Part shown: piece after piece, positions 10,174 to 62,737 of the stretch
Position numbering within the stretch: the first letter of the stretch is position 1
Layout: each line of letters starts with the position of its first letter
Assembly: GCA_016933215.1 (NCBI GenBank)
Contig: JAFGBH010000056.1
Coordinates: 1 to 62,737, forward strand
Source: Deltaproteobacteria bacterium
GTDB lineage: Bacteria > Desulfobacterota > Syntrophia > Syntrophales > UBA2210
Length of the DNA: 62,737 bases
Direction: 5' to 3'
Notes under the pieces: generated by a model
What the model was told of the DNA's origin: nothing
Database searches by the model: none
Seen by the model: only the letters and a program-made list of their open reading frames with translations
Translations under genes and position numbers: made by a program

Positions 10174-11694
10174 TTGTTTATGAAGATTAAAGAGAGACCA
10201 GACATTAACAGGGAAGAAGGGGATGTGGTTAAAGGGGATCCCCGTTCTTCCCTCTATAAGTTCGGATTTTTTACCGCTGCCTTCGTCCTTCTCGGAGTTA
10301 TCGCCATCCTTCCAAGTCCTGACCCGCTCGTCAAAGGGGGAGAGATGATACCTCTTGCCTGGAATGCAAAGGCCACCCTTGCACTCCTTGCAGCAGCGAT
10401 CGTGTTATGGATCACAGAGGTGATACCCTTCAGTATTACCGCGCTTATAATCATGCTTCTCATTCCTGTTTTCGGTATTGATTCCTTCAAACATGTAATC
10501 ATACTGGGATTCGGTAATCAGATCATAGCCTTTTTTATCGGCGTCCTGATACTATCCTCGGCATTTACGCGTTCGGGAATGGGGAACCGTTTGAGCGGTC
10601 TGATACTTTCAGTAATGGGGACGAAAACCAGAATGGTTATCCTGGGATTTATAATAGTTGGCACGCTTTTGTCAATGTGGGTTACCGATATGGCAGTGGC
10701 TGCGATTCTGATGCCACTCGGTGTTGCCATCCTCAGACAATCGGGGGTAAAGCCCCTGGAGAGCAACTTCGGCAAGGGCTTGATGATTTCCTGTGCCTGG
10801 GGCCCCCTCTTTGGCGGTATTGCAACCCCCTCCGGTTGCGGCCCCAATCCCCTCACGATCGGTTTTCTGAAGGGGCTTGCACATATCGATATAGATTTTA
10901 TCACCTGGATGAGCATGGGGCTTCCCGCCTCGCTTTTGATGATACCGGCGGGATGGCTTGTCATAACGAGGATTTTTCCGCCTGAAATTGAAAGAGTTCC
11001 ATTGGGAAAAGAAGAGATCAGAAAAAGACTTGACGATCTGGGGCCCCTTGGAATCAAGGAGAAATGGACACTCTCAATATTTCTTATCACAATCTCAGCA
11101 TGGATTGCCGCTCCCTTCATCAAGGATATGACGGGAGGAATGGTTGATATGCCAATGCAGGCCGTTGCGCTCTCGGGGGCGCTCTTTCTTTTTCTGCCGG
11201 GAATTGAGGTATTATCCTGGAAAGAGGCACAGGAGGACGTGGACTGGGGAGGCATAATCCTTATCTGTGCAGGGATATCTCTTGGTATGGTGGTCTACAA
11301 TACGGGTGCGGCACGATGGTTATCCTGGCTCCTTTTGGGCCCCGTTGTCCAACTGCCGGCCACTATAAGGGTCTTTGTCATTGTTCTTGGCGTAAGCCTT
11401 CTTCATCTGGCTTTTTCCAGCAACACGGTGACAGGGACAATCATTATCCCTCTTCTGATCGCGCTGGCGACTGATCTCAATATAAATCCCTGGCTGATAT
11501 GTGCACCGGCGGCATTTACCTCGTCTCTTGCTTTTATTCTTGTTACCGAGACTCCGACAAATGTCATACCCTACTCGGCGGGATATTTTGCGATCAAGGA
11601 TATGGCCAAGGCGGGAATCGTGATGACACTCGTGGCGGCATTGTGTGTCGGTATTTCGATTCTTGTCTTCGGTAATCTGTGGGGAAACTATTGA
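10174..11694 (+). CDS. DASS/SLC13 family anion:sodium symporter
   Basis: SMWVTD, GGIATPSGCGPN, FSSNT, ETPTN hairpin motifs; many TM helices. Confidence 0.88.
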   Translation: MFMKIKERPDINREEGDVVKGDPRSSLYKFGFFTAAFVLLGVIAILPSPDPLVKGGEMIPLAWNAKATLALLAAAIVLWITEVIPFSITALIIMLLIPVFGIDSFKHVIILGFGNQIIAFFIGVLILSSAFTRSGMGNRLSGLILSVMGTKTRMVILGFIIVGTLLSMWVTDMAVAAILMPLGVAILRQSGVKPLESNFGKGLMISCAWGPLFGGIATPSGCGPNPLTIGFLKGLAHIDIDFITWMSMGLPASLLMIPAGWLVITRIFPPEIERVPLGKEEIRKRLDDLGPLGIKEKWTLSIFLITISAWIAAPFIKDMTGGMVDMPMQAVALSGALFLFLPGIEVLSWKEAQEDVDWGGIILICAGISLGMVVYNTGAARWLSWLLLGPVVQLPATIRVFVIVLGVSLLHLAFSSNTVTGTIIIPLLIALATDLNINPWLICAPAAFTSSLAFILVTETPTNVIPYSAGYFAIKDMAKAGIVMTLVAALCVGISILVFGNLWGNY

Positions 11695-11841
11695 AGATCT
11701 CCGCAATCCCGTATAAGCGGGATCTCCGCTTTTGCTCCGACAGTTGCGGAGGATCTCCGATTGTAAAGGAAAATATTTGTTTTTTTATTCTCGCTTCCCC
11801 CGCCTAAAGGTAGCGGGATATGCGCTCGCTGTTCAATTCAA
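11691..11841 (-). mobile_element. Miniature IS200/IS605-like element, family A copy 1 (coordinates include the flanking TTGAA pentamer)
   Basis: Minus strand: TTGAA|TTGAACAGCGAGCGCA-hairpin-GCGAGAATAA...ATCGGAGATCCTCCGCAAC...TTGCGGAGATCTTCAA; homologous to six other copies in the window. Confidence 0.8.
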
Positions 11842-11860
11842 TGTAGCGTGGTGGTGAACT

Positions 11861-12883
11861 ATGAAAGCGGTCGTCTATGATAGCAAAAGGAAGCTCATGG
11901 TGGCAGATGTTCCGATGCCGGAGTTGAGTGATAATGAGGCCCTGGTAAAGGTGGTGAATACCGGTTTCTGCGGATCGGATCATTCACTGATTGAGAGCGG
12001 CGGTCTCGGTAATGGCACCATAATCGGGCACGAGGTAAGCGGTACCGTGGCAGATGTGGGTCGAAATGTGGATGGACCATCGGTGGGTGAAAGAGTGATG
12101 ATTCGTCCCACCTATTGCGGAGCTTGCAGGGAATGCAGACTGGGGAAGCCATATCTCTGTCAGGTAGAGAGAAGAACGATCGGTCTCGGCGATTTCCAGG
12201 GTGGATTCGCGGAATATTGTAAAGTGGACCCGCGAATGCTGATCCCGGTTCCGGTGGGCGTCGATTCACAAAATGCCGCACTTGCTGAGGCCTTTGCGGC
12301 GTCTCTTCATGGAATAGAATGCTCCGGCAAAAAGGAGGGATCGGCGCTCGTAATCGGGGGTGGATCAATAGGGCTCGCCCTGGTGAGACTTTTAAAGATT
12401 ATGGGTTTCGGACCGATTGCCCTTTCGGAACCGGTGGAAAAAAAGAGAGTGATCGCAGGCCTCTATGGTGCAGATGCGGTCATCGATCCTTTTCATGAAA
12501 ATCTGATAGTGCGCGCAATGGATGAGACGGGAGGAAAGGGTTTCGATTCTGTCTTTGAATGTTCCGGTGCCGTTGAATCCGTTCAGGCTGCCATCAATAC
12601 TGCGGCAGTAGGTGGTACGGTCTGTATCGTCAGTATCATCATGAAAAATATCGAGATCATTCCGCTGACGCTGAACTTCAAGGAGGTCTGGCTCACCGGG
12701 TCTTATTCAAACACGCATGAGGAAAACATCCGGTGTCTCAACTGGATGAAAGAGGGAAAGATCGATGGGCGGCCGCTGATTTCCGATTATATCGGCCTTG
12801 ACGACTTGCCGCGAGTCTATGAAGAGCGCATCGATACGGGCGAAGCAGTCAAGGTAATGATAAGAATCGGGGAAGAATTTTAG
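11861..12883 (+). CDS. Zinc-dependent alcohol dehydrogenase (MDR family)
   Basis: GFCGSD, GHE, CGACRECRLGKPYLC structural Zn site, GGGSIG. Confidence 0.92.
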   Translation: MKAVVYDSKRKLMVADVPMPELSDNEALVKVVNTGFCGSDHSLIESGGLGNGTIIGHEVSGTVADVGRNVDGPSVGERVMIRPTYCGACRECRLGKPYLCQVERRTIGLGDFQGGFAEYCKVDPRMLIPVPVGVDSQNAALAEAFAASLHGIECSGKKEGSALVIGGGSIGLALVRLLKIMGFGPIALSEPVEKKRVIAGLYGADAVIDPFHENLIVRAMDETGGKGFDSVFECSGAVESVQAAINTAAVGGTVCIVSIIMKNIEIIPLTLNFKEVWLTGSYSNTHEENIRCLNWMKEGKIDGRPLISDYIGLDDLPRVYEERIDTGEAVKVMIRIGEEF

Positions 12884-12988
12884 TTGATTGCAGTGATTAC
12901 GAAAATGAGCAGAGGAATAATACCTTCGATTGTTGATCGGAGAAGGGGCTCGTGATAAGGACTCTCGTCACAGCATAAAGAGGGCGAA

Positions 12989-13630
12989 GTGGGATTAAAA
13001 GAACGAAGAAAACGGGAAAAAGAACTCAGAAGAAAACAGATCCTCGATGCGGCGCGAGCCTTGCTTCTCAAGAGAGGAATTTCGTCGACATCGATGAATC
13101 GGATTGCTCGGGATGCAGAGCTCAGCGTCGGCACACTCTATATCTATTTTAAGAACAAGGAAGACCTCTATGCCGAACTCCAGGAAGAGGGGTTGAATCT
13201 CCTCTACGATAAAGTAAAAGAGGCAAAAGAAAGGGGGAATGACCCGCAGGATACATTAAGGGACATTGCAATTGCCTACCTCGATTTCAGCGAGGAGAAC
13301 AGGAACTACTTCGATATAATAAATTATTTTCTCTCTGCACCCGAAATAATATTTCCCCCGCACCTGAAATCGAGAATAGACCTTCAGGGCAAAAGGATTC
13401 TCTCCCTCATCGAGGAGGTTCTGGGAGATATTGATCCGGTAAGGGGAATCAGTGAAGGGCTCGTAAAACGATATGCCATCATACTATGGTCAAGTCTTCA
13501 CGGGATGCTGCAGCTGAGAAAACTCAAAAATACCATACTGAAAGACCAGGATTTCAGGGAACTGTATCTCTCAAGTGCGATGTTGACCATCAGCTCCATA
13601 ACAGCGAAAAAGGAAGATGATGTCCTCTGA
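12989..13630 (+). CDS. TetR/AcrR family transcriptional regulator
   Basis: ILDAARALL...IARDAELSVGTLYIYFKNKEDL HTH; GTG start. Confidence 0.92.
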   Translation: MGLKERRKREKELRRKQILDAARALLLKRGISSTSMNRIARDAELSVGTLYIYFKNKEDLYAELQEEGLNLLYDKVKEAKERGNDPQDTLRDIAIAYLDFSEENRNYFDIINYFLSAPEIIFPPHLKSRIDLQGKRILSLIEEVLGDIDPVRGISEGLVKRYAIILWSSLHGMLQLRKLKNTILKDQDFRELYLSSAMLTISSITAKKEDDVL

Positions 13631-13645
13631 CGAGGAGGGCTATAC

Positions 13646-14131
13646 CTAATTATTTATCTCAAGAAGATCGTCCCAGTCAAAGGTTGGAAAAGTGGTGCTC
13701 AGCGGATGATCATCATTCACGGTGTTGTAGCTGATATTCGGAAAAATTGACGTTGCTATTTTTCTAACGGGCTCTAAGGGGACAACGTCATCCTGACTTC
13801 CATGATAAGCGATAACAGGGATATCCATTTTCTTTGAAAGATAGTGTTCGAATTCCTCGAGGTCCAGTGCAGGTGCCAGGAGAATAAGCTTTTTCACTTT
13901 CCCTTCATTCTCACAGGCGTAGATGGCGGCCATTAATCCTCCGTAACTTGATCCGACCAGTATCAAATCTTTCCTGCCTGCCAGGGTATCGTTCAGTGTG
14001 TTCATTCTTTCACCAAGTGTCCCGACATAGTCTCTGACGATCATATCGGGATAGCGTTTCCTGAAGTAGGTCCCCTTGGTTCCGTCACTGCTGCTTTCCA
14101 AGCCGTGAATAAAGACTCTGGTGACACTCAT
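13646..14131 (-). CDS. Small alpha/beta hydrolase (YqiA/UPF0227-like esterase)
   Basis: FIHGLESS, GSSYGG, HGSQDDVVP, C-terminal DH. Confidence 0.8.
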   Translation of the reverse strand: MSVTRVFIHGLESSSDGTKGTYFRKRYPDMIVRDYVGTLGERMNTLNDTLAGRKDLILVGSSYGGLMAAIYACENEGKVKKLILLAPALDLEEFEHYLSKKMDIPVIAYHGSQDDVVPLEPVRKIATSIFPNISYNTVNDDHPLSTTFPTFDWDDLLEINN

Positions 14132-14259
14132 CCTGGTTTCCTTTCCATGCGGTATGTGAAAAGGTCATACTATTGATGAGAGAATTTTGCAAGGTACCAA
14201 AAAGATTGATTAGAATGTGCATAGTGTGTTAGACAGACCAAATTTGGAAAGGATTATAT

Positions 14260-16892: not shown

Positions 16893-17028
16893 GGGTGTCT
16901 GGTTTCGTTACGTGCCACTATATAATGCCAAAGCATCTTTTATACAAACAAATTAATTTACTATGAAAGCAGTATCATGCCCTTCGGGTTGATGAAGGAC
17001 AGGGAGGCATGATAAGGAATAACAAACG

Positions 17029-26620: not shown

Positions 26621-26697
26621 CGGGGCGTAGCGCAGCCTGGTAGCGCGCATGCTTTGGGAGCATGATGTCGCAGGTTCAAATCCTGCCGCCCCGACCA
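26621..26697 (+). tRNA. tRNA-Pro (TGG)
   Basis: CGGGGCG/CGCCCCG acceptor stem, D-loop CCTGGTA, anticodon arm CATGC-TT TGG GA-GCATG, GGTTCAAATCC T-loop, encoded CCA. Confidence 0.97.
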
Positions 26698-26699
26698 AA
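26671..26699 (+). repeat. att site copy within the tRNA-Pro 3' end
   Basis: CAGGTTCAAATCCTGCCGCCCCGACCAAA, identical to 33319-33347. Confidence 0.9.
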
Positions 26700-26711
26700 T
26701 AATATTTGTAA

Positions 26712-27881
26712 TTACAGTTGGTTAGCATTTTCAATATGCCCCAAATTCTTTACCACTTCTTTACCAGAAGCGTCTTTATAAATCTCTCGTAAATCATCAG
26801 CTTCAATTCTGAAATATCGCTCAAATGCCTTGTTGGTATGATGACCTGATGCTTTTTTAATTTCCTCTGGTGATCTTCCCGCTTTTCTTAATGCTCGTGC
26901 TGAACTGTGACGAGTACCACCGTACAAGTCAACGCCATTAACGCCGATGTTTTTACACGCTTTTTTCCACCAATTTGACAGTACGTGCTGACCAAAAGGA
27001 GAGCCCGCTTTTCTACCTGAACCCTTTGTATGTCTGAGAAACCTGAGGTTTGGCAGACCCCGGGGGAACGATCTGAATATCTCTATATCTTCATCAATAA
27101 GAGGTACTGCTTTATATTTCTTTTCTTTCGGCTTCGGAAAGTAAAGATATCCGTTTCCAAGGTCAATATTACCTTCTTCAAGAGATATCAATTCTCCCGG
27201 CCTTATTGATATGTAGGTGGATAGCAGCTTTATTGCGAACCAGATTTTTGGATTATAATTAGCTGTAAGTTTCTTGACCTCGTTGAGTATGGCAATCTGT
27301 GTTTCCTTGTCGATAGTCTTTCTATATCCTATCTCAACGTCTGTGCTTGGGAATTCTGGAAAGTCCTGCATTGAAATGTATTTACATTTGCGGAGCCATT
27401 CCCAGAAGGTGTGTAATGCGTCAATATAGTTCTTCTGCGTCTTTGAGCTGAGTTTACTGAGAGAGTATTTAAAGTCTTCGAGTTCAGGATATCCGATATC
27501 CTTGATGTTTGTATCAGCAAAGAAAGCAGAAGCTTTTGAAGCATAATTCTTAAGATTGTTATAATTTTTGGGCTTTACCTCTTGTTTCTTACGCTCAATC
27601 CACTTCTCAATTAGTGTTGAGAATCCTAACGGCTTATTCTTTCGATAATCACGATCATCAAAGTTACCTTCATCGTACTTAAATCTTAACCCTTCAAGAA
27701 AACGTTTAGCATTATCATAATTGTTAAATCGCTGATGTACGCTTTTAAATCTTGCAGAAAATCTTGTTGCTACTATCTTGTTGTGATTTGGACATTTTAA
27801 CGACTTTTTCCCGTCGTCTTTAAACGTTGAACTACAGACAGGACACCTCTGATCTGAATAGATTCCTCCAATCATACACAT
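26712..27881 (-). CDS. Tyrosine recombinase/integrase
   Basis: IRPGEL (R), KPKEKK, RHSSAR (HxxR), SGHHT (H), FERYF (Y); likely start ATG 27881 after GGGGGTG. Confidence 0.92.
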
Positions 27882-27930
27882 TTCACCCCCTTTATTTTGG
27901 GAGCTATTATGTCCGAGAGATGAATTCAAA

Positions 27931-29262
27931 TCAAGGCTTCCTTTCGAGTGCGTCTTTTATCCTCTTGGCACCTTCACTTTCCATTAACGTTTCAGTGGGC
28001 AATCCCAATTTTATCGCTTTCTTTTCATACTCCTCTTTGAAATCTTTCTTATTGCTTAAATACATAGCTATATCGTTCATGGCGTTTCGTAATGCGCTTT
28101 CTTGGTTTTTCTTCTGCGATATAACCGCATAACCTATAAGCAAGCCTGCCATTCTCGATACATAAGGGTCTAATGTCCGATGTGCTGTTTTCCTATATTC
28201 CCTCTTGATGTTTGATATTTCTCCAAATCGATTCTTGCAATTGATTACGTCCTGCCAAAATTCAAGGTATGTTCTCCGTTCAGTTTTTTCGTTGTCGAGA
28301 TGCCGTAAAGAAAACCATTCTGTCGTTAAATATTCCCAAATGTCAGCTATTGTTTTTTCAAGGTCATCCAGTGTTTCTATCTTGTATTGTTTCAATATAG
28401 ATCGTCTTATCTGGTATTCGATGCGCCATACATCCTCAGAATTATCGGTATTCCAAATTTCCAGCCATCGTTTCTCGGTGTCCTTCTTCGTTATCTCCAG
28501 ACCCTTGTTATATATCCTCAACTTAATGTCCGCTTTACCAACGCCGAAGTATATTGACTCAAGGATATCACCATTTTTATATTCAAGGGTCTTAATGCTC
28601 CTACCTACCTTATGCTTTTTCAGATAATCAGCGTCCAATCCTCCCGTAATTCTATAGTCTGCGCAGATATCCACTCTACTAGGCTTTATAAGCGTTATTC
28701 TTCCACCTAATACTGTTATGTCTTGCCATATCGCTATTACTGCGCTGTGATACCCTATGCTCCATAGTGCCTCTGAATTTATAGACACAAATACATTCGG
28801 GCTGTTGTTCTTCGGTTCTTCTGATATTGCTATAAAGATATGATATTCAGGAAATTGTAGATGATAACGGTAATTCGGCTGTTTCCCACCTGGTAGAAAC
28901 AGATATTTCCTCGTCTCAGTTAAATTAACTAATATGCCGTCAGTACCAAACGCCAGCTCCTTTCTGGCTTGAAAGATATCCTTCTTATCTTCCCAATCAT
29001 TGTTCCAGTTAACGTATACACCTAAATCTAGTGTATCTATACCGCATGATAAAAGCTCCCATTCTGTCCGCTGTGGGTTTTGCACATGGCGTGTTACAGA
29101 CAACGCCATGTTTTCATCCATACCATTTGATTGATTGTTTTGTGTCTGTCCGACCGCCTGCCCACCGCAGCCGTCCGGACAGACCACACCCATCTCTACC
29201 GATGATTTTGGATTATCAGTGTGGTCATAGATAGTATCTCTATGTGGTGCTCTTTCCTCCAT
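27931..29262 (-). CDS. Rep_trans-family rolling-circle replication initiator/relaxase
   Basis: GIDTLDL, SRVDICAD, ESIYFG, KLRIYNKGLE (catalytic Tyr, like RepC/RepD RIYNK), VWRIEYQIRR; exact start uncertain. Confidence 0.78.
   Translation of the reverse strand: MEERAPHRDTIYDHTDNPKSSVEMGVVCPDGCGGQAVGQTQNNQSNGMDENMALSVTRHVQNPQRTEWELLSCGIDTLDLGVYVNWNNDWEDKKDIFQARKELAFGTDGILVNLTETRKYLFLPGGKQPNYRYHLQFPEYHIFIAISEEPKNNSPNVFVSINSEALWSIGYHSAVIAIWQDITVLGGRITLIKPSRVDICADYRITGGLDADYLKKHKVGRSIKTLEYKNGDILESIYFGVGKADIKLRIYNKGLEITKKDTEKRWLEIWNTDNSEDVWRIEYQIRRSILKQYKIETLDDLEKTIADIWEYLTTEWFSLRHLDNEKTERRTYLEFWQDVINCKNRFGEISNIKREYRKTAHRTLDPYVSRMAGLLIGYAVISQKKNQESALRNAMNDIAMYLSNKKDFKEEYEKKAIKLGLPTETLMESEGAKRIKDALERKP
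29085..29110 (-). other. Candidate double-strand origin / nick-site hairpin
   Basis: CATGGCGT-TGTCTGTAAC-ACGCCATG: perfect 8-bp stem, 10-nt loop ending in TAAC, within the 5' part of rep. Confidence 0.45.
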
Positions 29263-29311
29263 GCGTAAAATTATGACAGAGAAAAGGAAAGAGAACCGGA
29301 CAGGAATTTAA

Positions 29312-30304
29312 TTATTTTTTGTCCGGTTTTGGAATGGTTTGCCAGAAGGTTTTTGCTCTTTGGATTGCTTTCTCGAATGACTCATCATTTATAATGTGGT
29401 CTGGATCATATGCTTCATCACCCTTATCACGGGCAATGACATTAAATAAGTCATCTATCTCTTTTGCAGTAAGTTTCTGTCCCATTACAATTGATATAAT
29501 TGAAATCAGACCTGCAAGGTTATATTTAATCTTCTTCAGGTCTAGTTTCATTTTTGGTGTTTTACCTGTAGCCGTTTTGAAGCAATACCTCATGCTTTGT
29601 TTTTTTGATACCTTTGCCTGATGATGTATTTCCATTATCTTCGGGTCATGAATTATTGAATCATCTAATCTGTATAATTTTTCAATGGCATCTTCATCAC
29701 CATGTCTGGCCTTCCTCAGAATATTAACGGGATAATCCCCGTAGAAGAGCCAGCAGGGAAGAAATACCCTGAGAAAATATATCATCTCAGGTTTTGCTTG
29801 AATCGCCCTGACTCTTTTCTTTGTATCGTTATCAGGTTCATTCTCTTTTTTACTATCGTTTCCTATAACATTGATGGCAATGAATTCCTGAATAACACCA
29901 GTATAGGTAATCGCTGTATTTATGATTTCCTGTTGCTTTTCCTGAGTCAATTTTTGAATTTCCCGATTAATTTCTTCGGGCGTCATTCCTTTGATTTGGT
30001 TGAATCCTCCCATCATAAGTTCGTAGATGTCTAGTGCCTTTGCAGTCGTATCGTTAAGGCTTCTGAATTCATCGGTGACGCCGTAATAGACTCTCCTGTG
30101 ATTGCGATAAAGGGATAGCCATTCTTGTATAGAGGGAAGCTTAGTTTCGCCTTCAATCCGTTTTCCCACTTTAAACATCTCAAGCAATTCAAGGCAGTAC
30201 TCAACACTTCCGGCAATAACAAGAGATGCTATGGCCAGCAAGAGACTCTTGTTATTTGCCCACTCATTGAAGTGCTTCATACCTGGAATATTGATTGTTG
30301 TCAT
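29312..30304 (-). CDS. Hypothetical protein (element-borne orphan)
   Basis: 330-aa open frame with GAGGGGGAG RBS; no family recognised. Confidence 0.75.
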   Translation of the reverse strand: MTTINIPGMKHFNEWANNKSLLLAIASLVIAGSVEYCLELLEMFKVGKRIEGETKLPSIQEWLSLYRNHRRVYYGVTDEFRSLNDTTAKALDIYELMMGGFNQIKGMTPEEINREIQKLTQEKQQEIINTAITYTGVIQEFIAINVIGNDSKKENEPDNDTKKRVRAIQAKPEMIYFLRVFLPCWLFYGDYPVNILRKARHGDEDAIEKLYRLDDSIIHDPKIMEIHHQAKVSKKQSMRYCFKTATGKTPKMKLDLKKIKYNLAGLISIISIVMGQKLTAKEIDDLFNVIARDKGDEAYDPDHIINDESFEKAIQRAKTFWQTIPKPDKK

Positions 30305-33525: not shown

Positions 33526-36500
33526 ATGCTGGTTCGGGAAACCACAGACGAAATAAAGTATCAGGTAGAGTGGTCCACACAGGACTTTCACGGGACGGGA
33601 ACATTTACCTGGCCCGATGGCAGTTGCTATGAAGGTGATTTTCACGATGGACACCTTCATGGTTATGGGGTCTTCACCTGGGCCGACGGGAGCAATTACA
33701 CAGGTCAATGGCAAAACGATTTGCCCCACGGAAGGGGTGTGTTTACTCTGCCTGATGGAAGTCAAACTGCCGGTGAATGGAACCAGGGAAGGGCAAGCAG
33801 ACAAGATGAACTGAAAAAGGCGGAAGAATCGAGAAAACGAGCAGAGGAAGCAGCGAGAATAGTTAGCGGAGAGGAATTAAAACTTACCGCTGAAGAGGAA
33901 GCGCTGAGGAAAAAGGCAGAAGAGGCCAGGCAAAGGACTGATGAAGCTGCCGCAAGGCTGGCTGAAGAAGAGGCGAAGCTCAAGGCTGAAGAGGAAGCGC
34001 TGAGTAAAAGGGCGGAAGAGGCCAGACAAAAAACCAAGGAAGCTGCCAGGAGACTTGCTGAAGAGGAAGCCAGACTCAAAGAAGAAGAGGAAACACGAAG
34101 AAAGGCAGAAGAGGCAAGAAAAGAGGCAGAGGAAGCGGCAAAAAGATTCGCCGAGGAAGAAGCGAGGCTCAAAGCTGAAGCTGAAGTGCTGAGAAAAAAA
34201 GCAGAAGAGGCGAAACAACGGACCGAAGAGGCGGCCAGAAGACTGGCGGAAGAAGAAACCAGACTCCAGGCCGAAGAGGAGGCGAGAGTAAAGGCTGAAG
34301 AAGCAAGACAAAAAGCCGAAGAAATGGCACGGAGACTTGCCGGAGAGGAAGCCAGAATAAGATCCGAAGAAGCAGAATTGACGAAAAAGGCCGAAGAAGC
34401 AAGGCAAAAGACCGAAGAAACGGCAAGAAGACTTGCTCAAGAGGAAGCCAAACTCAGAGCTGAGGAGGAAGCGAGCAGAAGAGCTGAAGAGGAATTGAGA
34501 ATAAGGGCCGAAAAGGCCATGAGAGAGGCAGAAGAAATATCATTTCGAATGGTCGAGGAAGAGGCCAGGCTGAAAGCTGATGAGGATGAACTGAGGAGAA
34601 GGGTTGAAGAATCAAGGGCAATTGCCTTTGAGACTGCCCGACGGCTTGCCGAGGAAGAAGCGAAACTGAGAGCCGAAGAGGAAGCGAGCAAGAAAGCCGA
34701 GGAGGAACTGAAGAAACGGGAGGCAGACGCCAAACAGCGGGCAAAGGAAGCGGCCATGAGAATGGCCGAGATGGAAGCCAGAATAAGATCCGAAGAAGCA
34801 GAATTGACAAAAAAGGCCGAAGAAGCAAGACAAAAGACTGAGGAAACTACCAGGAGGCTTGCCGAGGAAGAAGCCAGGTTGAGGGCCGAAGAGGAGGAGA
34901 GCAGAAGAGCGGAAGAAGAATTGAGAATAAAGGCCGAAGAGGTCAGGAAAAGAACCAGTGAAGCAAACCAGAGACTGGCCGAAGAAGAGGCCAGGCTCAA
35001 AGCTGACGAGGAAGAGTGGAAAATAAAGGCAGATGAAGGCAAACTTGAGGCTAAAAAAGAAGAGTTGAGAGCCAAAGCCAGTGCTGCACGACAGAAGATC
35101 GAAGCAGAAGCCAGGAAACTTGCCGAAGAGGAAAACAGGTTGAGGGCTGAGGAAGAAGCACTCAAGATAAAAGCTGTTAAGGCCAAACAAAATATTGAGG
35201 AAGCGGCGAGGAGATTGGCTGAAGAAGAAGCGAATCTCCGGATTGAAGAGGAGACAAGTAAAAAGGCTGAAGAAGAATTAAGAATAAAGGCCGAGGAGGC
35301 CAGACGGCGAGCGGAGGAAACAGCGGCAAGACTGTTAGAAGAGGAAGCCCGGCTCGCGGCTGAAGAGGAAGCATTAAGGAATAAATCAGAAGAGACGAGA
35401 CAGAAGGCAGAGGAGACTGCCCGCAGAATTGCAAGAGAAGAAGCACGGCTTCGCGCTGATGAAATGGCGCTTAAAAATGCAGAAGAAGAGGTGAGGATAA
35501 AGGCTCAAGAAACACGGCTAAAGACGGAAGAAGCAACAAAGAGACTCTCCGAAGAGGAAAACAGGCTAAAGGCTGAGACGGAAGAGTTACAGAAGAAGGT
35601 AGATGAAGCGAGGAAGAAAACCTATGATGCTGCCCAAAAACTTGCCGAAAAAGAGGCAAGGTTCAGAGCCGAAGAGGAGGCAAGCAAGAAAGCGGAAGAG
35701 GAGCTGCGGGTAAAGGCCGATGAAGCCAGACAGCGGGCCGAAGAAGCGGCACAAAGACTGGCAGAGGAGATCGAAAGAGCGAAGGAAGACGAAGAAAAGA
35801 CGCAGGAGCTCCTTGAAAAGGAGCGGTTTACCAGGATATCAGAAGTTGAAGGGGCCAAACGAATTGCCGAAAGAGAGGCCATGCTGAGGGCCGAAGAGGA
35901 GGCAAGCAAGAAAGCGGAAGAGGAGCTGCGGGCAAAGGCCGAAGAAGCCAGACAGCGGGCCGAAGAGGCTGCAAGGAGAATTGCCGAAGAGGAGACAAAA
36001 CTTCGAGCTGAAGAGGAGGCAAGCAAGAAAGCGGAAGAGGACCTTCGCAGAAAGGTCGAAGAAGCCAGACGGAGGGCAGAAGATGCGGCCCGGAGACTGG
36101 ATGAGGAAGAAGCCAGACTGAAATTCGAAGAAGAGGAGTTGCGTAAAAAGGCGGAAGACGCCCGACGGAGAACTGAAGAAACGGCAGAAAAGGTGGCCGC
36201 AGAAGAAGCGAGATTAAAAGCCGAAGAGGAAAAGCTTCGAAAGAAGGCGGAAGAGTTGGCAAGAATTTCTCTTGAAGAAGATGGAGCCGCGATTACCTCG
36301 GGGCGTATATCGAAGACCTTTCCTGACGGCAGCACATATGTCGGCGAAATAGTGAGGGGAATGCCACAGGGTCAGGGAGTTATGAACTATGCCGAAGGAA
36401 GCAAGTACGTCGGAGATTGGAAAGAGGGTAAACAGGATGGACACGGTATTCTTACCCTCTCCGATGGAACGATCTACATATGCCAGTGGAAGGAGGGTAA

Positions 36501-36945
36501 AAAGAACGGGAACGGAACGGCAACCATGCCGAATGGGAAAAAGTATATTGGCGATTGGAAAAACGACCGTTATGACGGCCAGGGAACAGAAACCTTTCCG
36601 GACGGCATGAAATACAATGGTCAGTTTAGGGATGGAAAGTTTCACGGCAGAGGGATTCTGGTCCTGCCTGACGGAAGACGATATACAGGTGAGTTCAAGG
36701 ATAGTGCCTTTCATGGAAAGGGAATTCTGGTATTTTCAACGGGGGACCGGTATGAGGGCGATTTTAAGAACAACCGGTATCATGGCAAGGGAAAAATGAT
36801 TATGGCAGACGGCAGATATTACTCGGGCGAACTTGAAAATGGCCTGCCTCACGGAATGGGGACAATGGTATTTACCAGCGGAAAAGAGAATGTTGGTCAA
36901 TTCGTAGAAGGAAGGTTTGTCGGAGAGAGAGAGGTGAGCAGATGA
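33526..36945 (+). CDS. MORN-repeat protein with a very long central E/K/R/A-rich helical repeat region
   Basis: About 3 MORN repeats (YxGxWxxGxxHGxG) at the N-terminus and about 8 at the C-terminus; residues ~92-915 are AEEARQKAEEAARRLAEEEARLKAEEE-type repeats. Confidence 0.88.
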   Translation: MLVRETTDEIKYQVEWSTQDFHGTGTFTWPDGSCYEGDFHDGHLHGYGVFTWADGSNYTGQWQNDLPHGRGVFTLPDGSQTAGEWNQGRASRQDELKKAEESRKRAEEAARIVSGEELKLTAEEEALRKKAEEARQRTDEAAARLAEEEAKLKAEEEALSKRAEEARQKTKEAARRLAEEEARLKEEEETRRKAEEARKEAEEAAKRFAEEEARLKAEAEVLRKKAEEAKQRTEEAARRLAEEETRLQAEEEARVKAEEARQKAEEMARRLAGEEARIRSEEAELTKKAEEARQKTEETARRLAQEEAKLRAEEEASRRAEEELRIRAEKAMREAEEISFRMVEEEARLKADEDELRRRVEESRAIAFETARRLAEEEAKLRAEEEASKKAEEELKKREADAKQRAKEAAMRMAEMEARIRSEEAELTKKAEEARQKTEETTRRLAEEEARLRAEEEESRRAEEELRIKAEEVRKRTSEANQRLAEEEARLKADEEEWKIKADEGKLEAKKEELRAKASAARQKIEAEARKLAEEENRLRAEEEALKIKAVKAKQNIEEAARRLAEEEANLRIEEETSKKAEEELRIKAEEARRRAEETAARLLEEEARLAAEEEALRNKSEETRQKAEETARRIAREEARLRADEMALKNAEEEVRIKAQETRLKTEEATKRLSEEENRLKAETEELQKKVDEARKKTYDAAQKLAEKEARFRAEEEASKKAEEELRVKADEARQRAEEAAQRLAEEIERAKEDEEKTQELLEKERFTRISEVEGAKRIAEREAMLRAEEEASKKAEEELRAKAEEARQRAEEAARRIAEEETKLRAEEEASKKAEEDLRRKVEEARRRAEDAARRLDEEEARLKFEEEELRKKAEDARRRTEETAEKVAAEEARLKAEEEKLRKKAEELARISLEEDGAAITSGRISKTFPDGSTYVGEIVRGMPQGQGVMNYAEGSKYVGDWKEGKQDGHGILTLSDGTIYICQWKEGKKNGNGTATMPNGKKYIGDWKNDRYDGQGTETFPDGMKYNGQFRDGKFHGRGILVLPDGRRYTGEFKDSAFHGKGILVFSTGDRYEGDFKNNRYHGKGKMIMADGRYYSGELENGLPHGMGTMVFTSGKENVGQFVEGRFVGEREVSR

Positions 36946-40740: not shown

Positions 40741-40916
40741 CTGAACTGAACAGCGACCGCATAAAAACTAACATTTTCCTTAATCCCGACAATCAGGATA
40801 AGTAAATTAAAGGATTAATTTTCTGCCAGAAAACACAGAAAATAAATCCTAACGGACTAAACAATCGGAGATACCCCGCAACTATCGGAGTTATAAGGGA
40901 TTGCGGGGAGCTTCAA
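40741..40916 (+). mobile_element. Miniature IS200/IS605-like element, family A copy 2 (left hairpin missing)
   Basis: CTGAA|CTGAACAGCGACCGCATAA...middle module...CCCCGCAAC...TTGCGGGGAGCTTCAA. Confidence 0.8.
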
Positions 40917-41169: not shown

Positions 41170-41293
41170 TTGTTACTACGGCAATTAAATATATCAAATG
41201 TCATACCGGACTTGATCCGGCATCCAGGCTAATTCTAAATTCCGGCTTCCGCCGGAATGACGGGCTTGACGTCTGTTATTGCCGGAGTAATAA
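41170..41293. mobile_element. MITE-like element with terminal inverted repeats and internal REP-like hairpins (family C)
   Basis: TTGTTACTACGGCAAT ... ATTGCCGGAGTAATAA (14/16 inverted match) around GTCATACCGGACTTGATCCGGCATCC and ATTCCGGCTTCCGCCGGAATGAC. Confidence 0.6.
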
Positions 41294-41375
41294 GCTCCTC
41301 GGTTATAATTTATGATATAGATGTTGACTGACCCTATAATATTTTATAGGTTTTGGCGGAAACAAAGTGCTCTAT

Positions 41376-41426
41376 TTGACCGGGGGCGCACCCGCAAGCC
41401 GCGCCCTCTGGGCGGGGAGATTCACA
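41376..41426 (+). repeat. 51-bp dispersed repeat, family B copy 1
   Basis: 46/51 identical to 51991-52041; TTGAC...CGCCC-TCT-GGGCG...TTCAC. Confidence 0.8.
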
Positions 41427-42296: not shown

Positions 42297-42493
42297 TTGA
42301 ACTGAGAAGCGAGCGCAATCCCCGCTTTATGAGGCGGGGTTAGCGAACGAATACAAAATAAACACTTTCCTTAATCCCGACAATCGGGATAAGTGAGGTA
42401 ACAAATTTATTTTCTGCCAGAAAACACAGAAAATAAATCCTAACTTACTTAACAGTCGGAGATTCCCCGCAACTTCTTGCGGGGGAACTTCAA
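42297..42493 (+). mobile_element. Miniature IS200/IS605-like element, family A copy 3 (complete)
   Basis: TTGAA|CTGAGAAGCGAGCGCA-hairpin...ATCCCGA-CAA-TCGGGAT...ATTTATTTTCTG/CAGAAAATAAAT...CCCCGCAA-CTTC-TTGCGGGG-GAACTTCAA. Confidence 0.82.
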
Positions 42494-47478: not shown

Positions 47479-47688
47479 TTGAACTGAGCAGCGAGCGCAT
47501 ATCCCGTTGATTGCAGCAGGGTATGCGAGCGAATAAGAAATAACATTTTCCTTAATCCCGACAATCGGGATAAGTGAGTTAACGAATTTATTTTCTGCCA
47601 GAAAACACAGAAAATAAATCCTAACTTTCTAAACAATCGGAGATTCCACGCAACTGTCGGAGTTATAAGGGATTGCGGGAAGCTTCAA
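47479..47688 (+). mobile_element. Miniature IS200/IS605-like element, family A copy 4 (complete, longest)
   Basis: TTGAA|CTGAGCAGCGAGCGCA...GCGGGAAGCTTCAA, all three modules present. Confidence 0.82.
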
Positions 47689-51990: not shown

Positions 51991-52041
51991 TTGACCGGGA
52001 GCGCACCCGCAAGCCTCGCCCTGTGGGCGTGGAGCTTCACA
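51991..52041 (+). repeat. 51-bp dispersed repeat, family B copy 2
   Basis: 46/51 identical to 41376-41426; just upstream of the MmgE/PrpD RBS. Confidence 0.8.
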
Positions 52042-53424: not shown

Positions 53425-53447
53425 AGGAAAGTATGAAAGGAGCGCGA

Positions 53448-55153: not shown

Positions 55154-55591
55154 ATGAGCGAGAGAAAAAACGAGCACCTTATCGTGAGAGAACCGATTAA
55201 CGTCAACAAGCTTCCCGATCATAAACTGAGCGACGTGATACCCTTTCCGGTGCTGATGTGCAAGGATCTGGTGCCCGAAGCACAGGCATGGGCTCTTTAC
55301 ATGTTCATAAAAGAGATAACGCAGGAAATGGTTGATCTTATGGATGCCGTAGGAAAGGCAACTCCACACCGGCATGACTTTGATGAAATGTATCTGATGA
55401 TAGGGGAAGAAAAGGCCATCACCTTTGAGGTCATGCTTGACGACGAATTCTACGAGGTTGCAACGCCGGGAGCGGTGTATATTCCGAAAGGACTTCCTCA
55501 TGCCATACGGCCGGTGAAGGCAACGGTGGGCCTTTCGGGTGGTCTCATTCCCGTGTGTCTGAACGGGGAATATGTTACACTACCGGTGTAA
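55154..55591 (+). CDS. Cupin-fold protein
   Basis: PHRHDFDEMY (H-x-H-x3-E) and AVYIPKGLPH cupin motifs. Confidence 0.75.
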   Translation: MSERKNEHLIVREPINVNKLPDHKLSDVIPFPVLMCKDLVPEAQAWALYMFIKEITQEMVDLMDAVGKATPHRHDFDEMYLMIGEEKAITFEVMLDDEFYEVATPGAVYIPKGLPHAIRPVKATVGLSGGLIPVCLNGEYVTLPV

Positions 55592-55656
55592 TTATTTATG
55601 AGCCAAACTATGGTATATGGTTGTTGATGAAATAATCGATGAAAAATGGGGTGGGG

Positions 55657-56505: not shown

Positions 56506-56713
56506 AAACGCTCTCTTCTTTAAAGATATGTTTGAGTTTGTCGGATAAATTATTACGTGAGAAGCTCAAGGCGGATCTATGAAAGAGTTGACAAAAAATA
56601 TAATTATATGTCATTAAACTCTATGGTTGAAGTTAATATAAGATAACAGAGCAAAGGCCGGCAGTACTTCTGATTATGAGAAAAAGGACCGTGATTAACG
56701 GGGGGAATGACAT

Positions 56714-57832: not shown

Positions 57833-58018
57833 TGCTTTGATACTTTTCAAGACTGCCGGAACGAAAGAGAAGCGTCTTCAGAGAACCTACTTTATCTCCG
57901 GCCTTTGTATTAACAAGCCAGATTACGTCTTAACCAATACTTTTAAATACGCTATGGGAAGAATAACGAGAGCCATTTCACAAGCGATGGTAATAGTGTC
58001 CGCTGCAAGAGGAGATTC

Positions 58019-59239: not shown

Positions 59240-59287
59240 GCACAAAGGGACAGAGCAAAAAAAGGTAAATGGGCACAAAGGCACAAA
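59239..59287 (+). repeat. 8-mer repeat array (GGCACAAA) upstream of the four-helix-bundle gene
   Basis: GGCACAAA at 59239, 59272 and 59280, plus variant GGGACAGA. Confidence 0.75.
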
Positions 59288-59298
59288 GTACAACAACG

Positions 59299-59767
59299 AT
59301 GAAAACATACAGAGACCTTATTGTATGGCAGAAGTCTGTGCACTTTGTAACGGTAATATATCAAATAACAAAGACGTTCCCTAAAGATGAAGCCTTTGGT
59401 TTGATTTCGCAGATGAGGCGATGTTCTGTTTCTATCCCCAGCAATATTGCAGAAGGTTACGGCCGAAGATCAAAAAATGATTATGTACGCTTCCTGCAAA
59501 TAGCAATGGGGGCGGTCTTAGAGTTACAAACCCAGTTAGAGATTAGCCGGAATCTGAAATATCTTACTCCAAATCAACTTGAAGAGATTTACGAACTGAA
59601 CAGCGAGCGCAATCCTCGCTGCTGGCGGCGGGGTTAGCGAGCGAATAAAAAATGCAGTTTTCCTTAACAGTCGGAGATCCCACGCAACTTGTTGCGGGGA
59701 GCTTCAATTAAGTCGAGAAATTGAACGAATGCTTAGTAGCCTGATCAATAAAGTACGAGCAAAATAG
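59299..59767 (+). pseudogene. Four helix bundle protein (TIGR02436 / 23S rRNA IVS protein-like) interrupted by a miniature element
   Basis: MKTYRDLIVWQKS..FP.DEAFGLISQMRRCSVSIPSNIAEG..ELQTQL; native tail LSREIERMLSSLINKVRAK* (59708-59767) is out of frame after a 112-bp insertion. Confidence 0.85.
59591..59707 (+). mobile_element. Miniature IS200/IS605-like element, family A copy 5 (no middle module), intragenic
   Basis: ACGAA|CTGAACAGCGAGCGCA...TTGCGGGGAGCTTCAA. Confidence 0.85.
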
Positions 59768-59782
59768 TCTTCGTCTCTTGAC

Positions 59783-59890
59783 TTTGTGCCTATGTGCCTT
59801 TGTCCCTTTTATTATTACTATATGCCTTTTTGCTTTTGCTTTTCTTTGTGCCTATGTGCCTTTGTTACTTTGTTCCTTTGTTACTTTGCC
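59783..59890 (-). repeat. 8-mer repeat array, inverted relative to 59239-59287
   Basis: Plus strand TTTGTGCC/TATGTGCC/TTTGTCCC/TTTGTTAC/TTTGTTCC units at 59783, 59791, 59799, 59845, 59853, 59861, 59869, 59877. Confidence 0.8.
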
Positions 59891-59897
59891 TTTAGTA

Positions 59898-61604
59898 TCA
59901 CAAAATAACGTTCAGAAGACCTCCCACCGTCAAAGCCGACACAATCATAATCAACATTGACTTCAGAAAATCCCGCAGTCCCAATTCCTTCAAAAGAACC
60001 ACGAACGTGGCAATGCAGGGGAAGAACATCGTAAGGACCACACTTCCAATAACCATCTGTTTGGCCGTGAGTGCCGAAATTGCGAGCATTCCGAGGGCGG
60101 CATCTTTCCTGATAAATCCGATCACGATTGCCACGATCGACTCTTCGGGTAGTCCCCAGATGCCGGTAATCACAGGTGCGGCAAATCTCGCGACATAATC
60201 AAAGATCCCAAAAATAAAGAGTATATTTATGATAAAGACGGCTGCCAGGATTATGGGCACTGCCTCCCTGAGAAAATTATCAATTCTGTAGAAGAGTTTC
60301 TGGAAGACGATTCCCCATGGCGGGATCCGGTAGGGTGGAATTTCTATCAGGAGTTCAGGGCTCAGACCTTTTAATATCTTGTTCAGGATATAACCGAGTA
60401 TGATCCATACCAGAAAAAGCGTTCCGTAAACCATGGCCACATATTTTCCGCCGAATTTACCGACGAGTCCAAAAATCATCGCCTGGGCAGACGCGCAGGG
60501 AATAGCGATGGAAACGAGCGTCGCCGCGATGAAACGTTCCCGCCTGCTTTCGAGGACGCGCGTTGCCATTATGGCGGGCACGTTGCATCCAAGTCCCAAA
60601 AGCGTGGGAACAATAGCGAATCCGTGCAAACCAATTTTGTGCATGGTGGTATCCAAAAGAACGGCCAGTCGGGGAAGGTACCCGATATCCTCGAGGAGTC
60701 CTATGACCAGGTAAAAGGAAATAATATAGGGGAGTACCATCGCGATCGGGACATAAAGGCCACTGCTTAGAAGCCCGAATGACTCAATAAAATGGATATT
60801 CCCGGAGATAAGCTTTCCCACAATGACATCATGGAGTAAACCGCCTTCGCCCATAAGAACGCTCAGCTTTGTCAATACCGGCAGCCATATCTTATAAAAG
60901 AAAGGATCAAGGATATAAGTGATGAGATTTTCGCCGACAAAGCGGATGATATAGTAAGAAATGGCAAGGACCGCCGCGGCGATAAAAAGACCGGTTTTCG
61001 GTTTTACACTTGCGTCTTCGAGACGCTCAAACCACCGGTGATGACGATGGGCGATGGTCTGAATATTGTCTATGATTTTTCCTACGAAGGCCCAGCGTTC
61101 GTCACGGTTCATGGACGTTATATCAGAAGTGGTGGCACGTGGAATGCTTTCCGCCAGGTCTTTTATTCCCTGTCCCGTGAGACCCGAGGTTGCGATGACG
61201 GGAACGCCGAGAATAGTTTCTAACTTTTTACGGTCAATTGAAATGCCGCGGTGTTTTGTGTCGTCCCAGAGATTGAGTGCCACGACAAGGGGAATCTTTT
61301 TTTCCAGTAGCTGAAGGGTCAGATAGAGGTTTCTTTCGAGGTTGGTTGCATCGACTACATTGATGACCACATCGCCCGATTTCAGCATGTCGAGTGCTAT
61401 TTCTTCCGCCTCACTGGTGGGTTCGAGCGTATAGGTACCGGGTACATCGATGATTTCGGCCGTTTCATCGCCGGTCTTCATAAAACCGCTTGTATAACTT
61501 ACGGTGGTACCGGGGTAATTAGACGAAACAACGCGCACTCCCGTAAGACGGGAGAATATGACGCTCTTTCCGACATTTGGATTACCCATGAGCAAAATCT
61601 TCAT
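59898..61604 (-). CDS. feoB: Ferrous iron transporter B
   Basis: GNPNVGKS, NYPGTTV, DVPG, DATNLERN, GLGCNVPA, FFPCIAT. Confidence 0.93.
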   Translation of the reverse strand: MKILLMGNPNVGKSVIFSRLTGVRVVSSNYPGTTVSYTSGFMKTGDETAEIIDVPGTYTLEPTSEAEEIALDMLKSGDVVINVVDATNLERNLYLTLQLLEKKIPLVVALNLWDDTKHRGISIDRKKLETILGVPVIATSGLTGQGIKDLAESIPRATTSDITSMNRDERWAFVGKIIDNIQTIAHRHHRWFERLEDASVKPKTGLFIAAAVLAISYYIIRFVGENLITYILDPFFYKIWLPVLTKLSVLMGEGGLLHDVIVGKLISGNIHFIESFGLLSSGLYVPIAMVLPYIISFYLVIGLLEDIGYLPRLAVLLDTTMHKIGLHGFAIVPTLLGLGCNVPAIMATRVLESRRERFIAATLVSIAIPCASAQAMIFGLVGKFGGKYVAMVYGTLFLVWIILGYILNKILKGLSPELLIEIPPYRIPPWGIVFQKLFYRIDNFLREAVPIILAAVFIINILFIFGIFDYVARFAAPVITGIWGLPEESIVAIVIGFIRKDAALGMLAISALTAKQMVIGSVVLTMFFPCIATFVVLLKELGLRDFLKSMLIMIVSALTVGGLLNVIL

Positions 61605-61612
61605 TTTGCCGC

Positions 61613-61843
61613 CTATTTTGTTTCGACGATTATTTTTTGTGCCATGCCGTAACCGATGGCAATCAGAGACCTGTTTATCTGAACGGTGACGGGACCCCTC
61701 AACATCATGGAACCTTTTTTCGTTACTTTCTTTCCCGGTATAATACCAAGAGAGTTCAGGCGATTGGTAAGTCCCTGACCCCCTCGTATTTCAATTATTG
61801 TACCGGCTTCTTCGGAATGAAGATCACCGAGAGATTTAACCAC
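61613..61843 (-). CDS. feoA: Ferrous iron transport protein A
   Basis: RLNSLGIIPG..V...GPVTVQI....IAIG..MAQKI; likely GTG 61843 (the ORF-track extension runs into a repeat). Confidence 0.88.
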   Translation of the reverse strand: MVKSLGDLHSEEAGTIIEIRGGQGLTNRLNSLGIIPGKKVTKKGSMMLRGPVTVQINRSLIAIGYGMAQKIIVETK

Positions 61844-61871
61844 TGTATATTCTTTCCTTCCAACTCTTAAA

Positions 61872-61926
61872 TTGAAGCTCCCCGAAGTATAATAGCCGAG
61901 GGGAATATACTCGCTGTTCAATTCAA
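61872..61926 (-). mobile_element. Miniature IS200/IS605-like element, family A copy 6 (minimal, ends only)
   Basis: Minus strand TTGAA|TTGAACAGCGAG...TTCCCC-TCGGCTATTATACTTC-GGGGAGCTTCAA. Confidence 0.7.
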
Positions 61927-62053
61927 TATAGTTATTTATACTATAAAAAACAAGGTACGTAAAAGATATTTACGAAAAACAAAGCGAATATATTGCCTTA
62001 CGTCATAGAGAGGAAAAGGCATATTCTCTTATGGTATGGCAAACTGTCATAAT

Positions 62054-62075
62054 AAAAGAGGCCCCTTGGGGCCTC
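62054..62075 (-). terminator. Rho-independent terminator downstream of csp
   Basis: Minus strand GAGGCCCC-AA-GGGGCCTC-TTTT. Confidence 0.6.
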
Positions 62076-62271
62076 CTCTGTATTCATCTATCTCCGCACT
62101 TTCCTGCGGTACTTTTTACATAAGGTTCTATCAGGCAAACCACTCTGATATGAGAATATTTAAGCAGTTCTACTGATAACATCCGGTATTTAAATTTTCT
62201 AACGCAGCCTTGTCAAACTTTGATTTAAAGAACTCTTTTTCTGTGTGACGATTTAGCTGGTTACTTTACTG

Positions 62272-62472
62272 TTATGGCTTTGTAACGTTTTTTGCCTGAA
62301 ACCCCCTGTCTGTCTCCTCGATGTCGAAGTTTACCTCTTCGCCCTCATTAAGGGTCCTGAAGCCATCCATGTTAATGGATGAGTAATGAACGAACAAATC
62401 TTGGCCATTTTCCTGCTGAATGAAACCAAACCCCTTCTTCTCATTAAACCATTTTACCGTTCCCGTTGCCAA
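62272..62472 (-). CDS. Cold-shock protein (CspA family)
   Basis: [22 protein letters not shown]; TTG start after AAGGAGG. Confidence 0.95.
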
Positions 62473-62676
62473 CGCAAAAACCTCCTTTTTAAAAAACAGT
62501 GAAACAATAAATAATAACTCGATCGGTTATCGGTTCACCGGCCTCCAATTAAAACTTGCCTCCGGAAAACCTTACCCCGAGCCCAACACAGATTGTTTAA
62601 TGTTTATACCGAGTTCTGTTATCCGTCAAGAAAAAAATGAGCCTTTATTTAAATTAGCATAAATTGTGCGTCAGTC

Positions 62677-62737
62677 TTGAACTGAATAGCGAGCGCATTC
62701 CCCGTTGCTTGCAGCGGGGTTAGCGAGCGAATAAAAA
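62677..62737 (+). mobile_element. Miniature IS200/IS605-like element, family A copy 7 (cut by the window end)
   Basis: TTGAA|CTGAATAGCGAGCGCA-TTCCCCGTTGC..GCAGCGGGG-TTAGCGAGCGAATAAAAA. Confidence 0.8.

Follow-up and report, generated by a model that had tools for sequence, protein, structure and literature searches.

Excision and integration of IS608, ISDra2 and other members of the IS200/IS605 family use the lagging-strand template (PMC5027513), and in IS608 four guide bases lying directly 5′ of each hairpin foot recognize the cleavage sites (TTAC and TCAA) (PMC3201880). The pairs that constitute this code are T-4:A-34, C-3:G-35 and C4:G4, and the rule matches C1 to G2, C2 to G1 and C4 to G4; the third base of the site is unpaired, and the A and G found 3′ of the right hairpin form triples (PMC3201880). 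We analyzed a family of miniature repeats without open reading frames (ORFs) in a 62,737-nucleotide (nt) stretch of DNA from a Deltaproteobacteria bacterium of the order Syntrophales (GenBank assembly GCA_016933215.1, contig JAFGBH010000056.1, hereafter the window), and compared it with these and other described systems. An earlier note, made from the sequence alone, had assigned the repeats to IS200/IS605-type peel-and-paste elements, a reading with which the empty sites, the strand bias, the guide covariation and the homology of the ends to IS200 all agree. The copies are very probably non-autonomous, ORF-less derivatives of the IS200 group, i.e. palindrome-associated transposable elements (PATEs), that move as single-stranded DNA by peel-and-paste.

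The repeat resembles IS608 and ISDra2 in having its subterminal hairpins on one strand, with that top strand on the lagging-strand template, and in inserting 3′ of a fixed 4–5-nt target without duplication (TTAC for IS608, TGAA here and TTGAT for ISDra2, the last as given in the earlier note and confirmed in the literature, where the TTCAA right end that the note also gives for ISDra2 was not found). With IS608 it further shares the right cleavage site TCAA, a guide 5′ of the hairpin foot and an AG directly 3′ of the right hairpin. The distance from the left cleavage site to the hairpin foot is 18 nt as compared with 19 nt in IS608, and the right tail is 8 nt rather than 10 nt. Unlike IS608 and ISDra2, the element carries neither tnpA nor tnpB, its stems are perfect 9-bp helices closed by a TT loop, and it is short (46–220 nt) and modular.

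The PATEs of Haloquadratum walsbyi and the PATE-like elements of Geobacillus stearothermophilus are similar in lacking terminal inverted repeats and target duplications, in having near-terminal palindromes related to those of IS605-type elements and a conserved terminal oligonucleotide that acts as the targeting sequence, and in showing strain-specific insertions and core deletions between repeats (PMC3119063; PMC10055086). The features by which PATEs were defined in Haloquadratum are all found here, and we place the family in the PATE class as a new member, with DNA-encoded TGAA targeting. It differs from the described PATEs in its bacterial Syntrophales host, which has no TnpB (IS1341-type) partner, in its origin from a tnpA-only IS200 element, in the lack of an omega-RNA, and in the presence of two sibling families with compensating guide and target changes.

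Empty sites, element boundaries and target

The window is one contig (C44) of a metagenome-assembled genome (MAG; G000) of 2.69 Mb in 102 contigs, estimated to be 97.8% complete. A congeneric sister species with 85–93% identity (G001) served as the empty-site reference, in which the joined flanks of 29 G000 copies of 100–130 nt were searched. At 13 of the 29 sites G001 is continuous, and hence empty; at five, both genomes are filled. In nine base-level alignments, excision of exactly YTGAAC...TTCAA leaves the two genomes colinear and of the same length. At one empty site the G001 sequence GTATTGAA/ATAAATTAC (the slash marks the insertion point) is exactly that of the joined G000 flanks, and at another TTTGAT/TGTAAAGG in G001 corresponds to TTTGAA-element-TGTAAAGG in G000. 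The reverse arrangement, with G001 filled and G000 empty, was found three times; two of these cases are precise, one of them with an empty G000 site that reads GTTTGAA/AGCAAG, and the third has a 5-nt discrepancy. The intergenic counterparts of the 44.6-kb and 47.5-kb positions in G001 and in the related genome G010 are too diverged to be read at the base level.

One of the nine clean sites lies within a coding region of the window, where excision of positions 59596–59707 restores an ORF that ends in EEIYELSREIERMLSSLINKVRAK and a stop codon and is colinear with the C terminus encoded in G001. The insertion has cost the disrupted gene (23S_rRNA_IVP, four-helix bundle; 59269–59800 region) its last 18 codons, and the reading frame now terminates within the 112-nt element.

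Insertion is precise and occurs 3′ of (t)TGAA(t), with nothing duplicated or lost. The empty-site alignments place the preceding pentamer in the target and not in the element; the alternative boundary, with the pentamer inside the element and insertion 5′ of TTCAA, is excluded by empty sites numbered 18 and 19. The boundaries proposed in the earlier note, together with its claim that the target is not duplicated, are borne out by the nine clean sites. Its TTGAA target stands as nTGAA and falls as a strict pentamer, the conserved core being only TGAA (t-TGAA-t).

As 13 of the 29 tested copies are missing at the orthologous G001 site, the family was recently active, as had been proposed, and many insertions are younger than the split between the two species. 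Strain-level polymorphism was also sought among contigs encoding the same sequence, which yielded identical contigs only; two loci of JAFGWZ01 (Deltaproteobacteria bacterium ZodW_Metabat.303) show 100% identity to the window. In the clean pairs, by hand count, comparison of filled with empty alleles gives about eight differences in the five bases left of the insertion, as compared with about one on the right, and the left pentamer of the empty alleles is TTGAT in two sites and TTCAA or ATCAA in others. This excess of left-flank differences may reflect ascertainment or chance.

Copy number and modular structure

BLAST with the window copies found 218–226 loci in G000, which together span 26.4 kb (about 1% of the genome), and 155 of the copies are complete. 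The large genome-wide burden that the earlier note had extrapolated from the window is thus real, at a density (about one copy per 12 kb) lower than the one per 9 kb of the window itself. TGAA directly precedes 121 of the 155 complete copies, against a background frequency of 0.6% for this tetramer, and T directly follows 114 of them. The flank logo reads t (52%), T (84%), G (86%), A (89%), A (89%), then the element, then T (67%), beyond which the sequence is random. Both the copy number and the flank preference are far beyond chance.

The element is a mosaic of 46–220 nt with size classes of about 46, 104, 112, 127, 145, 190 and 205 nt. The left end, YTGAAC-AGCGAGCGCATT, is followed by a first hairpin, CCCCG(Y)TGC-TT-GC(R)GCGGGG, by a stretch running from TTAGCGAGCGAATAAAAAAT to TTTTCCTTAA, and by optional inner modules; a further stretch, CAGTCGGAGATT, precedes the second hairpin, CCCCGCAAC-TT-GTTGCGGGG, and the tail, AGCTTCAA. 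Both 9-bp TT-loop hairpins, of the form CCCCGNNNC-TT-GNNNCGGGG, are borne by the top strand (hairpin strength z=-2.6 and z=-4.3), and each of the nine pairs of the left hairpin is retained in 80–95% of copies. The two ends differ from one another, terminal symmetry being limited to 5 nt (TTGAA of the flank and TTCAA of the end). Variants without the first hairpin resemble deletions between two AGCGAGCG direct repeats, and the common single-hairpin forms include those of 45–50 nt.

Most copies are intergenic, and the element is widespread in Syntrophales MAGs: there are about 180 candidate copies within the same genus, with others in further genera of the family and, at 75–82% identity, in other families of the order. 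The consensus is specific to each genome, and copies in G041, the complete Syntrophales chromosome OY761459.1 (2,586,994 bp), average 96.5% identity to theirs. Many G000 contigs end within a copy (e.g. C9, C18, C23, C27, C30, C53, C72, C84, C85, C90 and C98), and contigs of G001 and of Logan assemblies likewise stop within element copies, which points to the family as a main cause of assembly breaks here.

Orientation relative to replication

The cumulative GC skew of G041 is lowest at 1.00 Mb and highest at 2.29 Mb. The strand that reads from left to right end (top strand) lies on the G-rich strand in 45 of 46 loci (p=1.3e-12); because this strand has the leading-strand sequence, it is the parental strand on which the lagging strand is templated. 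Long ORFs, taken as a control, occupy the same strand in only 57% of cases, and of the genes upstream of an element 24 share its orientation and 22 are opposed. When strands were assigned by local GC skew in G000, 131 loci as compared with 37 were in the lagging-strand-template orientation, and the complete copies gave 100 versus 30 (p=5e-10), with an ORF control of 730 versus 740. Placement of the top strand on the lagging-strand template is a signature of the IS200/IS605 family.

Guide sequences, sibling family B and autonomous relatives

At the left end of the element (family A, where a distinction from its sibling is needed), a CATT guide together with a TGAA flank exactly 18 nt upstream of the hairpin foot is present in 67 G000 and 18 G041 copies. 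At the right end, GATT, the AG after the foot and the terminal TCAA occur jointly in 28 G000 and 27 G041 copies. Judged by sequence complementarity, both ends fit the IS608 rule, and the difference between the two sites at position 2 (G versus C) is matched by the difference between the two guides at position 1 (C versus G).

G000 also contains 56 copies of a sibling, family B, including two in the window at 41381–41425 (+) and 51996–52040 (+). Its copies start with CGGGGGCGCACCCGCAAG, contain hairpins of the form CCCCGCC(Y)TGT(R)GGCGGGG, end in AGCTTCAC and measure 45, about 105 or about 123 nt; their strand bias in G000 is weak (29 versus 17). On the left, family B has an nTGAC flank and a CAAG guide 18 nt from the foot, and on the right a GAAG guide and a TCAC end. 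At the position that corresponds to 12883 of the window, G001 carries a family B insertion for which the G000 site is cleanly empty.

The closest autonomous elements are the IS200 "group 1" copies of four related Syntrophales genomes (G017, G137, G158 and G313), which encode a 146-aa TnpA. They occur in the same bacterial order and share with the element its hairpin architecture and the right-end linker AG-CT-TCA: the group 1 right end, AGATG-(CCCCGCGGC-TT-GCCGCGGGG)-AG-CT-TCAC, aligns with GATT-(CCCCGCAAC-TT-GTTGCGGGG)-AG-CT-TCAA of the element. They differ in their autonomy, in a left end that reads CTTT/GCAGAATA, where only 8 nt separate hairpin and cleavage site and the guide is AATA, in a right guide and site of GATG/TCAC rather than GATT/TCAA, a compensating change that is the chief difference between the two right ends, and in having no copy in G000. 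The motif AAAAnTTTTCCT that follows the left hairpin is common to the element and to the IS200 of another relative, G026. IS200 copies in relatives combine a GATG guide with a TCAC end, the same position-4 compensation as that observed in family B. Such covariation between guide and site, as read from the sequences, appears hard to explain except by DNA-guided cleavage of the TnpA type.

Copies and other features of the window

Repeat detection and direct reading both support seven copies in the window, six of them complete and one cut by the contig end; all seven, with the ends described for them, had been listed in the earlier note, where the start coordinates were those of the first base of the flanking pentamer. 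No additional copy of the element family was found in the window. The start motif YTGA(A/G)NAGCGA is present in all seven, and all six complete copies end with a GC-rich hairpin followed by the terminal TTCAA. The preceding pentamer is TTGAA in five copies, CTGAA in one and ACGAA in one. In line with the earlier description and with the empty sites, neither an ORF nor a flanking duplication was found for the window copies.

The copy at 42302–42493 (+; 192 nt, complete; left flank TTGAA, 42297–42301) illustrates the full arrangement, with the left-end guide CAAT at 42316–42319 and the left-end hairpin at 42320–42339, such that 18 nt separate the cleavage point from the hairpin foot, and with the right-end guide GATT at 42461–42464, the hairpin CCCCGCAACTTCTTGCGGGG at 42465–42484 and the tail to the TTCAA that ends at 42493. 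The copy at 11691–11836 (−; 146 nt, complete) has a T-type start, TTGAAC, and terminates in GATCTTCAA; its left flank is TTGAA (11837–11841), it lies between genes for a Na/sulfate symporter and an alcohol dehydrogenase, and the orthologous G001 contig stops within the copy. Positions 40746–40916 (+; 171 nt; left flank CTGAA, 40741–40745) hold a complete copy that has lost the left-end hairpin, apparently by deletion between two AGCGAGCG repeats, and carries internal modules. The G001 ortholog of this copy is filled and lacks two internal modules, a difference of whole modules.

The largest copy in the window, at 47484–47688 (+; 205 nt, complete; left flank TTGAA, 47479–47483), has internal modules and an extended right-end hairpin and lies 11 nt upstream of the start of a glycyl-radical enzyme gene; the G010 counterpart site is short, about 50 nt. 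The 23S_rRNA_IVP gene (59269-) contains in its 3′ end the complete 112-nt copy at 59596–59707 (+; left flank ACGAA), and directly downstream of this gene are T-rich tandem repeats with an 8-nt period (59769–59887). The minimal copy at 61872–61921 (−; 50 nt; left flank TTGAA, 61922–61926) has a single degenerate hairpin, and only the left end remains of the copy at 62682–62737 (+; left flank TTGAA, 62677–62681), which the contig end cuts.

Two further repetitive features were observed in the window. A 124-nt repeat at 41170–41294 is bounded by inverted ends (TTACTACGGCAAT ... ATTGCCGGAGTAA) that enclose a GGAATGAC/CCGGCTTCCGCCGG hairpin; it recurs many times in G001, G004, G010 and G012 and looks like an unrelated family of MITEs (transposable elements of the miniature inverted-repeat type). 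A 1139-aa ORF at 33526–36945 is composed of some 17 repeats that have diverged and whose periods are 96, 117 and 213 nt; it is rich in AEEEARLKAEEE and coiled-coil-like.

Search for a transposase and an autonomous parent

The earlier note had supposed that a TnpA encoded elsewhere mobilizes the copies in trans. Such a TnpA would fit the geometry of the ends, and the searches of G000 and G041 for a canonical tnpA and for tnpB returned nothing. TnpB (PF07282) was absent from 25 genomes including G000, while the controls were matched, which also excludes the repeats as carriers of a TnpB/IscB omega-RNA. The Y2 transposase profile PF04986, sought as the hallmark of IS91/ISCR rolling-circle elements, had no match in seven genomes, and had none in the control genomes either. 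No long pair of left and right ends was present in G041 or G000, no autonomous parent lay beside the 40 Y1 loci inspected, and viral contigs gave no element matches. In metagenomes, a scan for the left end followed by a YHLVW motif had no match, and a second scan with a wider gap gave only two chance matches, beside a tRNA.

Long-type, RAYT-like Y1 genes (RAYT, REP-associated tyrosine transposase; REP, repetitive extragenic palindrome) form an element type of their own, widespread in the order and missing from G000. G041 has four such paralogs (PF01797; 220–226 aa; 39–61% identity) at 119709–120368, 61510–62175, 1674749–1675426 and 1693207–1693878, each bracketed by its own inverted repeats, e.g. 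AATAGGGACACTCCCC / GGGGAGTGTCCCTATT. The long-type Y1 was rejected as helper on account of these repeats and its absence from G000. In the window, a region at 26621–30304 has the appearance of a small integrated element, in which a tRNA gene precedes, on the minus strand, a tyrosine integrase (26712–27929), a 442-aa Rep_trans-like protein (27931–29262) and an ORF without a family match. Eight of 41 relatives have homologs of the Rep protein, whose distribution does not follow that of the repeats, and this gene was likewise rejected as helper for want of co-occurrence with the family.

Alternative explanations

Several observations weigh against assigning the family to the IS200 group. No Y1 transposase was found in G000 with Pfam PF01797 or by tblastn with 20 Y1 proteins, and the complete G041 chromosome, with 46 copies, is without a canonical IS200 TnpA. 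No autonomous element with the left end CTGAACAGCGAGCG was encountered at 30 IS200 loci, which come from 338 Syntrophales genomes, and the abundance of canonical TnpA does not follow that of the element across relatives. The guide rule itself has exceptions, being broken by TAAT upstream of the right-end hairpin in the 104-nt class, and the single-hairpin forms of 45–50 nt are unable to fit it at both ends. Small multicopy contigs may be lost in MAG binning, which would hide a helper in G000; because the G041 chromosome is complete, such loss is no explanation there, unless the helper is on a plasmid. A comparable situation has been recorded in Haloquadratum strain C23T, in which PATEs appear mobile even though all IS200-type transposases are pseudogenes (PMC3119063), a puzzle usually ascribed to short-lived autonomous copies, and instability of autonomous copies has been noted in Geobacillus (PMC10055086).

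The absence of a canonical transposase is the starting point for two other accounts of how the copies spread. It is very unlikely that they are repeats of the REP/REPIN type (REPIN, paired REP units) dispersed by the RAYT-like long Y1 proteins (220–340 aa) rather than by an IS200 TnpA, even though such genes are present in most relatives and are the only Y1 genes of G041, with its 46 young copies. REPs share with the element the abundance of extragenic hairpins and the link to the Y1 HUH superfamily, but they are short GTAG-palindromes, often arranged as inverted pairs that flank a single RAYT gene, whereas the element copies are directional single units with two unlike ends, a fixed target and no associated RAYT. 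Moreover, G000 has no Y1 gene of any type, the G041 genes are flanked by their own GGGGACA.../...TGTCCCC repeats and not by element hairpins, long Y1 genes occur to the same extent where the element is lacking, and the right end of the element is homologous to those of canonical IS200. A mover that is not recognizable as a Y1 enzyme, or an extrachromosomal helper encoded by a plasmid or phage, would account for two element-rich genomes (one of them complete) without canonical TnpA, for the truncated or stop-ridden IS200 remnants that are all the other element-rich genomes hold (G012, G040, G021, G258 and G265), and for the many G000-specific insertions. We consider this account just as doubtful, given that the guide and cleavage geometry is exactly that of IS608 TnpA, that the viral contigs and TnpB searches were negative, as was the Y2 search, which had no working positive control, that the only other nickase-like gene of the window, the Rep_trans-like gene, does not co-occur with the family, and that strain C23T already presents the same puzzle.

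The last explanation dispenses with transposition and holds that the repeats are structured elements that serve the host as terminators, small RNAs or replication-oriented motifs, their orientation bias being due to selection. Polar, replication-oriented motifs exist in bacteria, and the strength of the hairpins and the mostly intergenic location of the copies would suit such a role. We regard it as the least probable of the three, since the copies have no Rfam match at either gathering or E-value thresholds, are oriented independently of neighboring genes, vary in presence between sister species with precise, target-specific junctions, and in one case truncate a coding region; nor would guide/site covariation have any role in an RNA or terminator model. 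The fixed, conserved noncoding RNA or terminator loci that the earlier note had named as grounds for abandoning its reading are not what was found, and the cognate transposase was not found either. Single copies may have been co-opted secondarily by the host. A MITE of a DDE transposon was also considered and rejected, as the target is not duplicated and terminal inverted repetition does not exceed 5 nt.

Proposed mechanism and implications

In the preferred reading, as non-autonomous IS200-group elements, a Y1 HUH TnpA supplied in trans would bind the hairpins, the left guide CATT would pair with the flanking TGAA, and the right guide GATT would pair with the terminal TCAA. The predicted junction of the excised circle is ...GAGCTTCAA/CTGAACAGCG.... 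The size variants probably arose by deletion between internal direct repeats or hairpins, together with module exchange between copies. The choice of target would reside in the DNA of the element and not in the protein, and a DNA-encoded target would explain why TGAA is used here, CTTT by the nearest autonomous IS200 and TGAC by family B.

Two wider points follow. The less probable, which we hold to be unlikely, is that the family is moved by a yet-unrecognized helper, either a divergent or non-Y1 single-strand nuclease or one carried on an unassembled extrachromosomal element; it is suggested by the young, insertion-polymorphic copies in lineages without an intact Y1 gene, including that of a complete chromosome, and this absence of a helper repeats the observation from haloarchaea. 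The better-supported point is that gene-less elements appear to have rewritten their DNA-encoded target (TGAA, TGAC, CTTT) by compensating changes in guide and site, which parallels in nature what engineering has done in retargeting IS608. With its precise junctions, near-absolute strand bias and covariation across siblings and autonomous relatives, the family constitutes a natural test of the IS608 recognition code. Its effects on the genome are also substantial, with about 1% of the sequence occupied, short-read assemblies broken, gene boundaries settled and genes sometimes truncated. Since it would be the DNA of the element, rather than the transposase, that reads the target, such non-autonomous elements seem capable of evolving a target specificity of their own.

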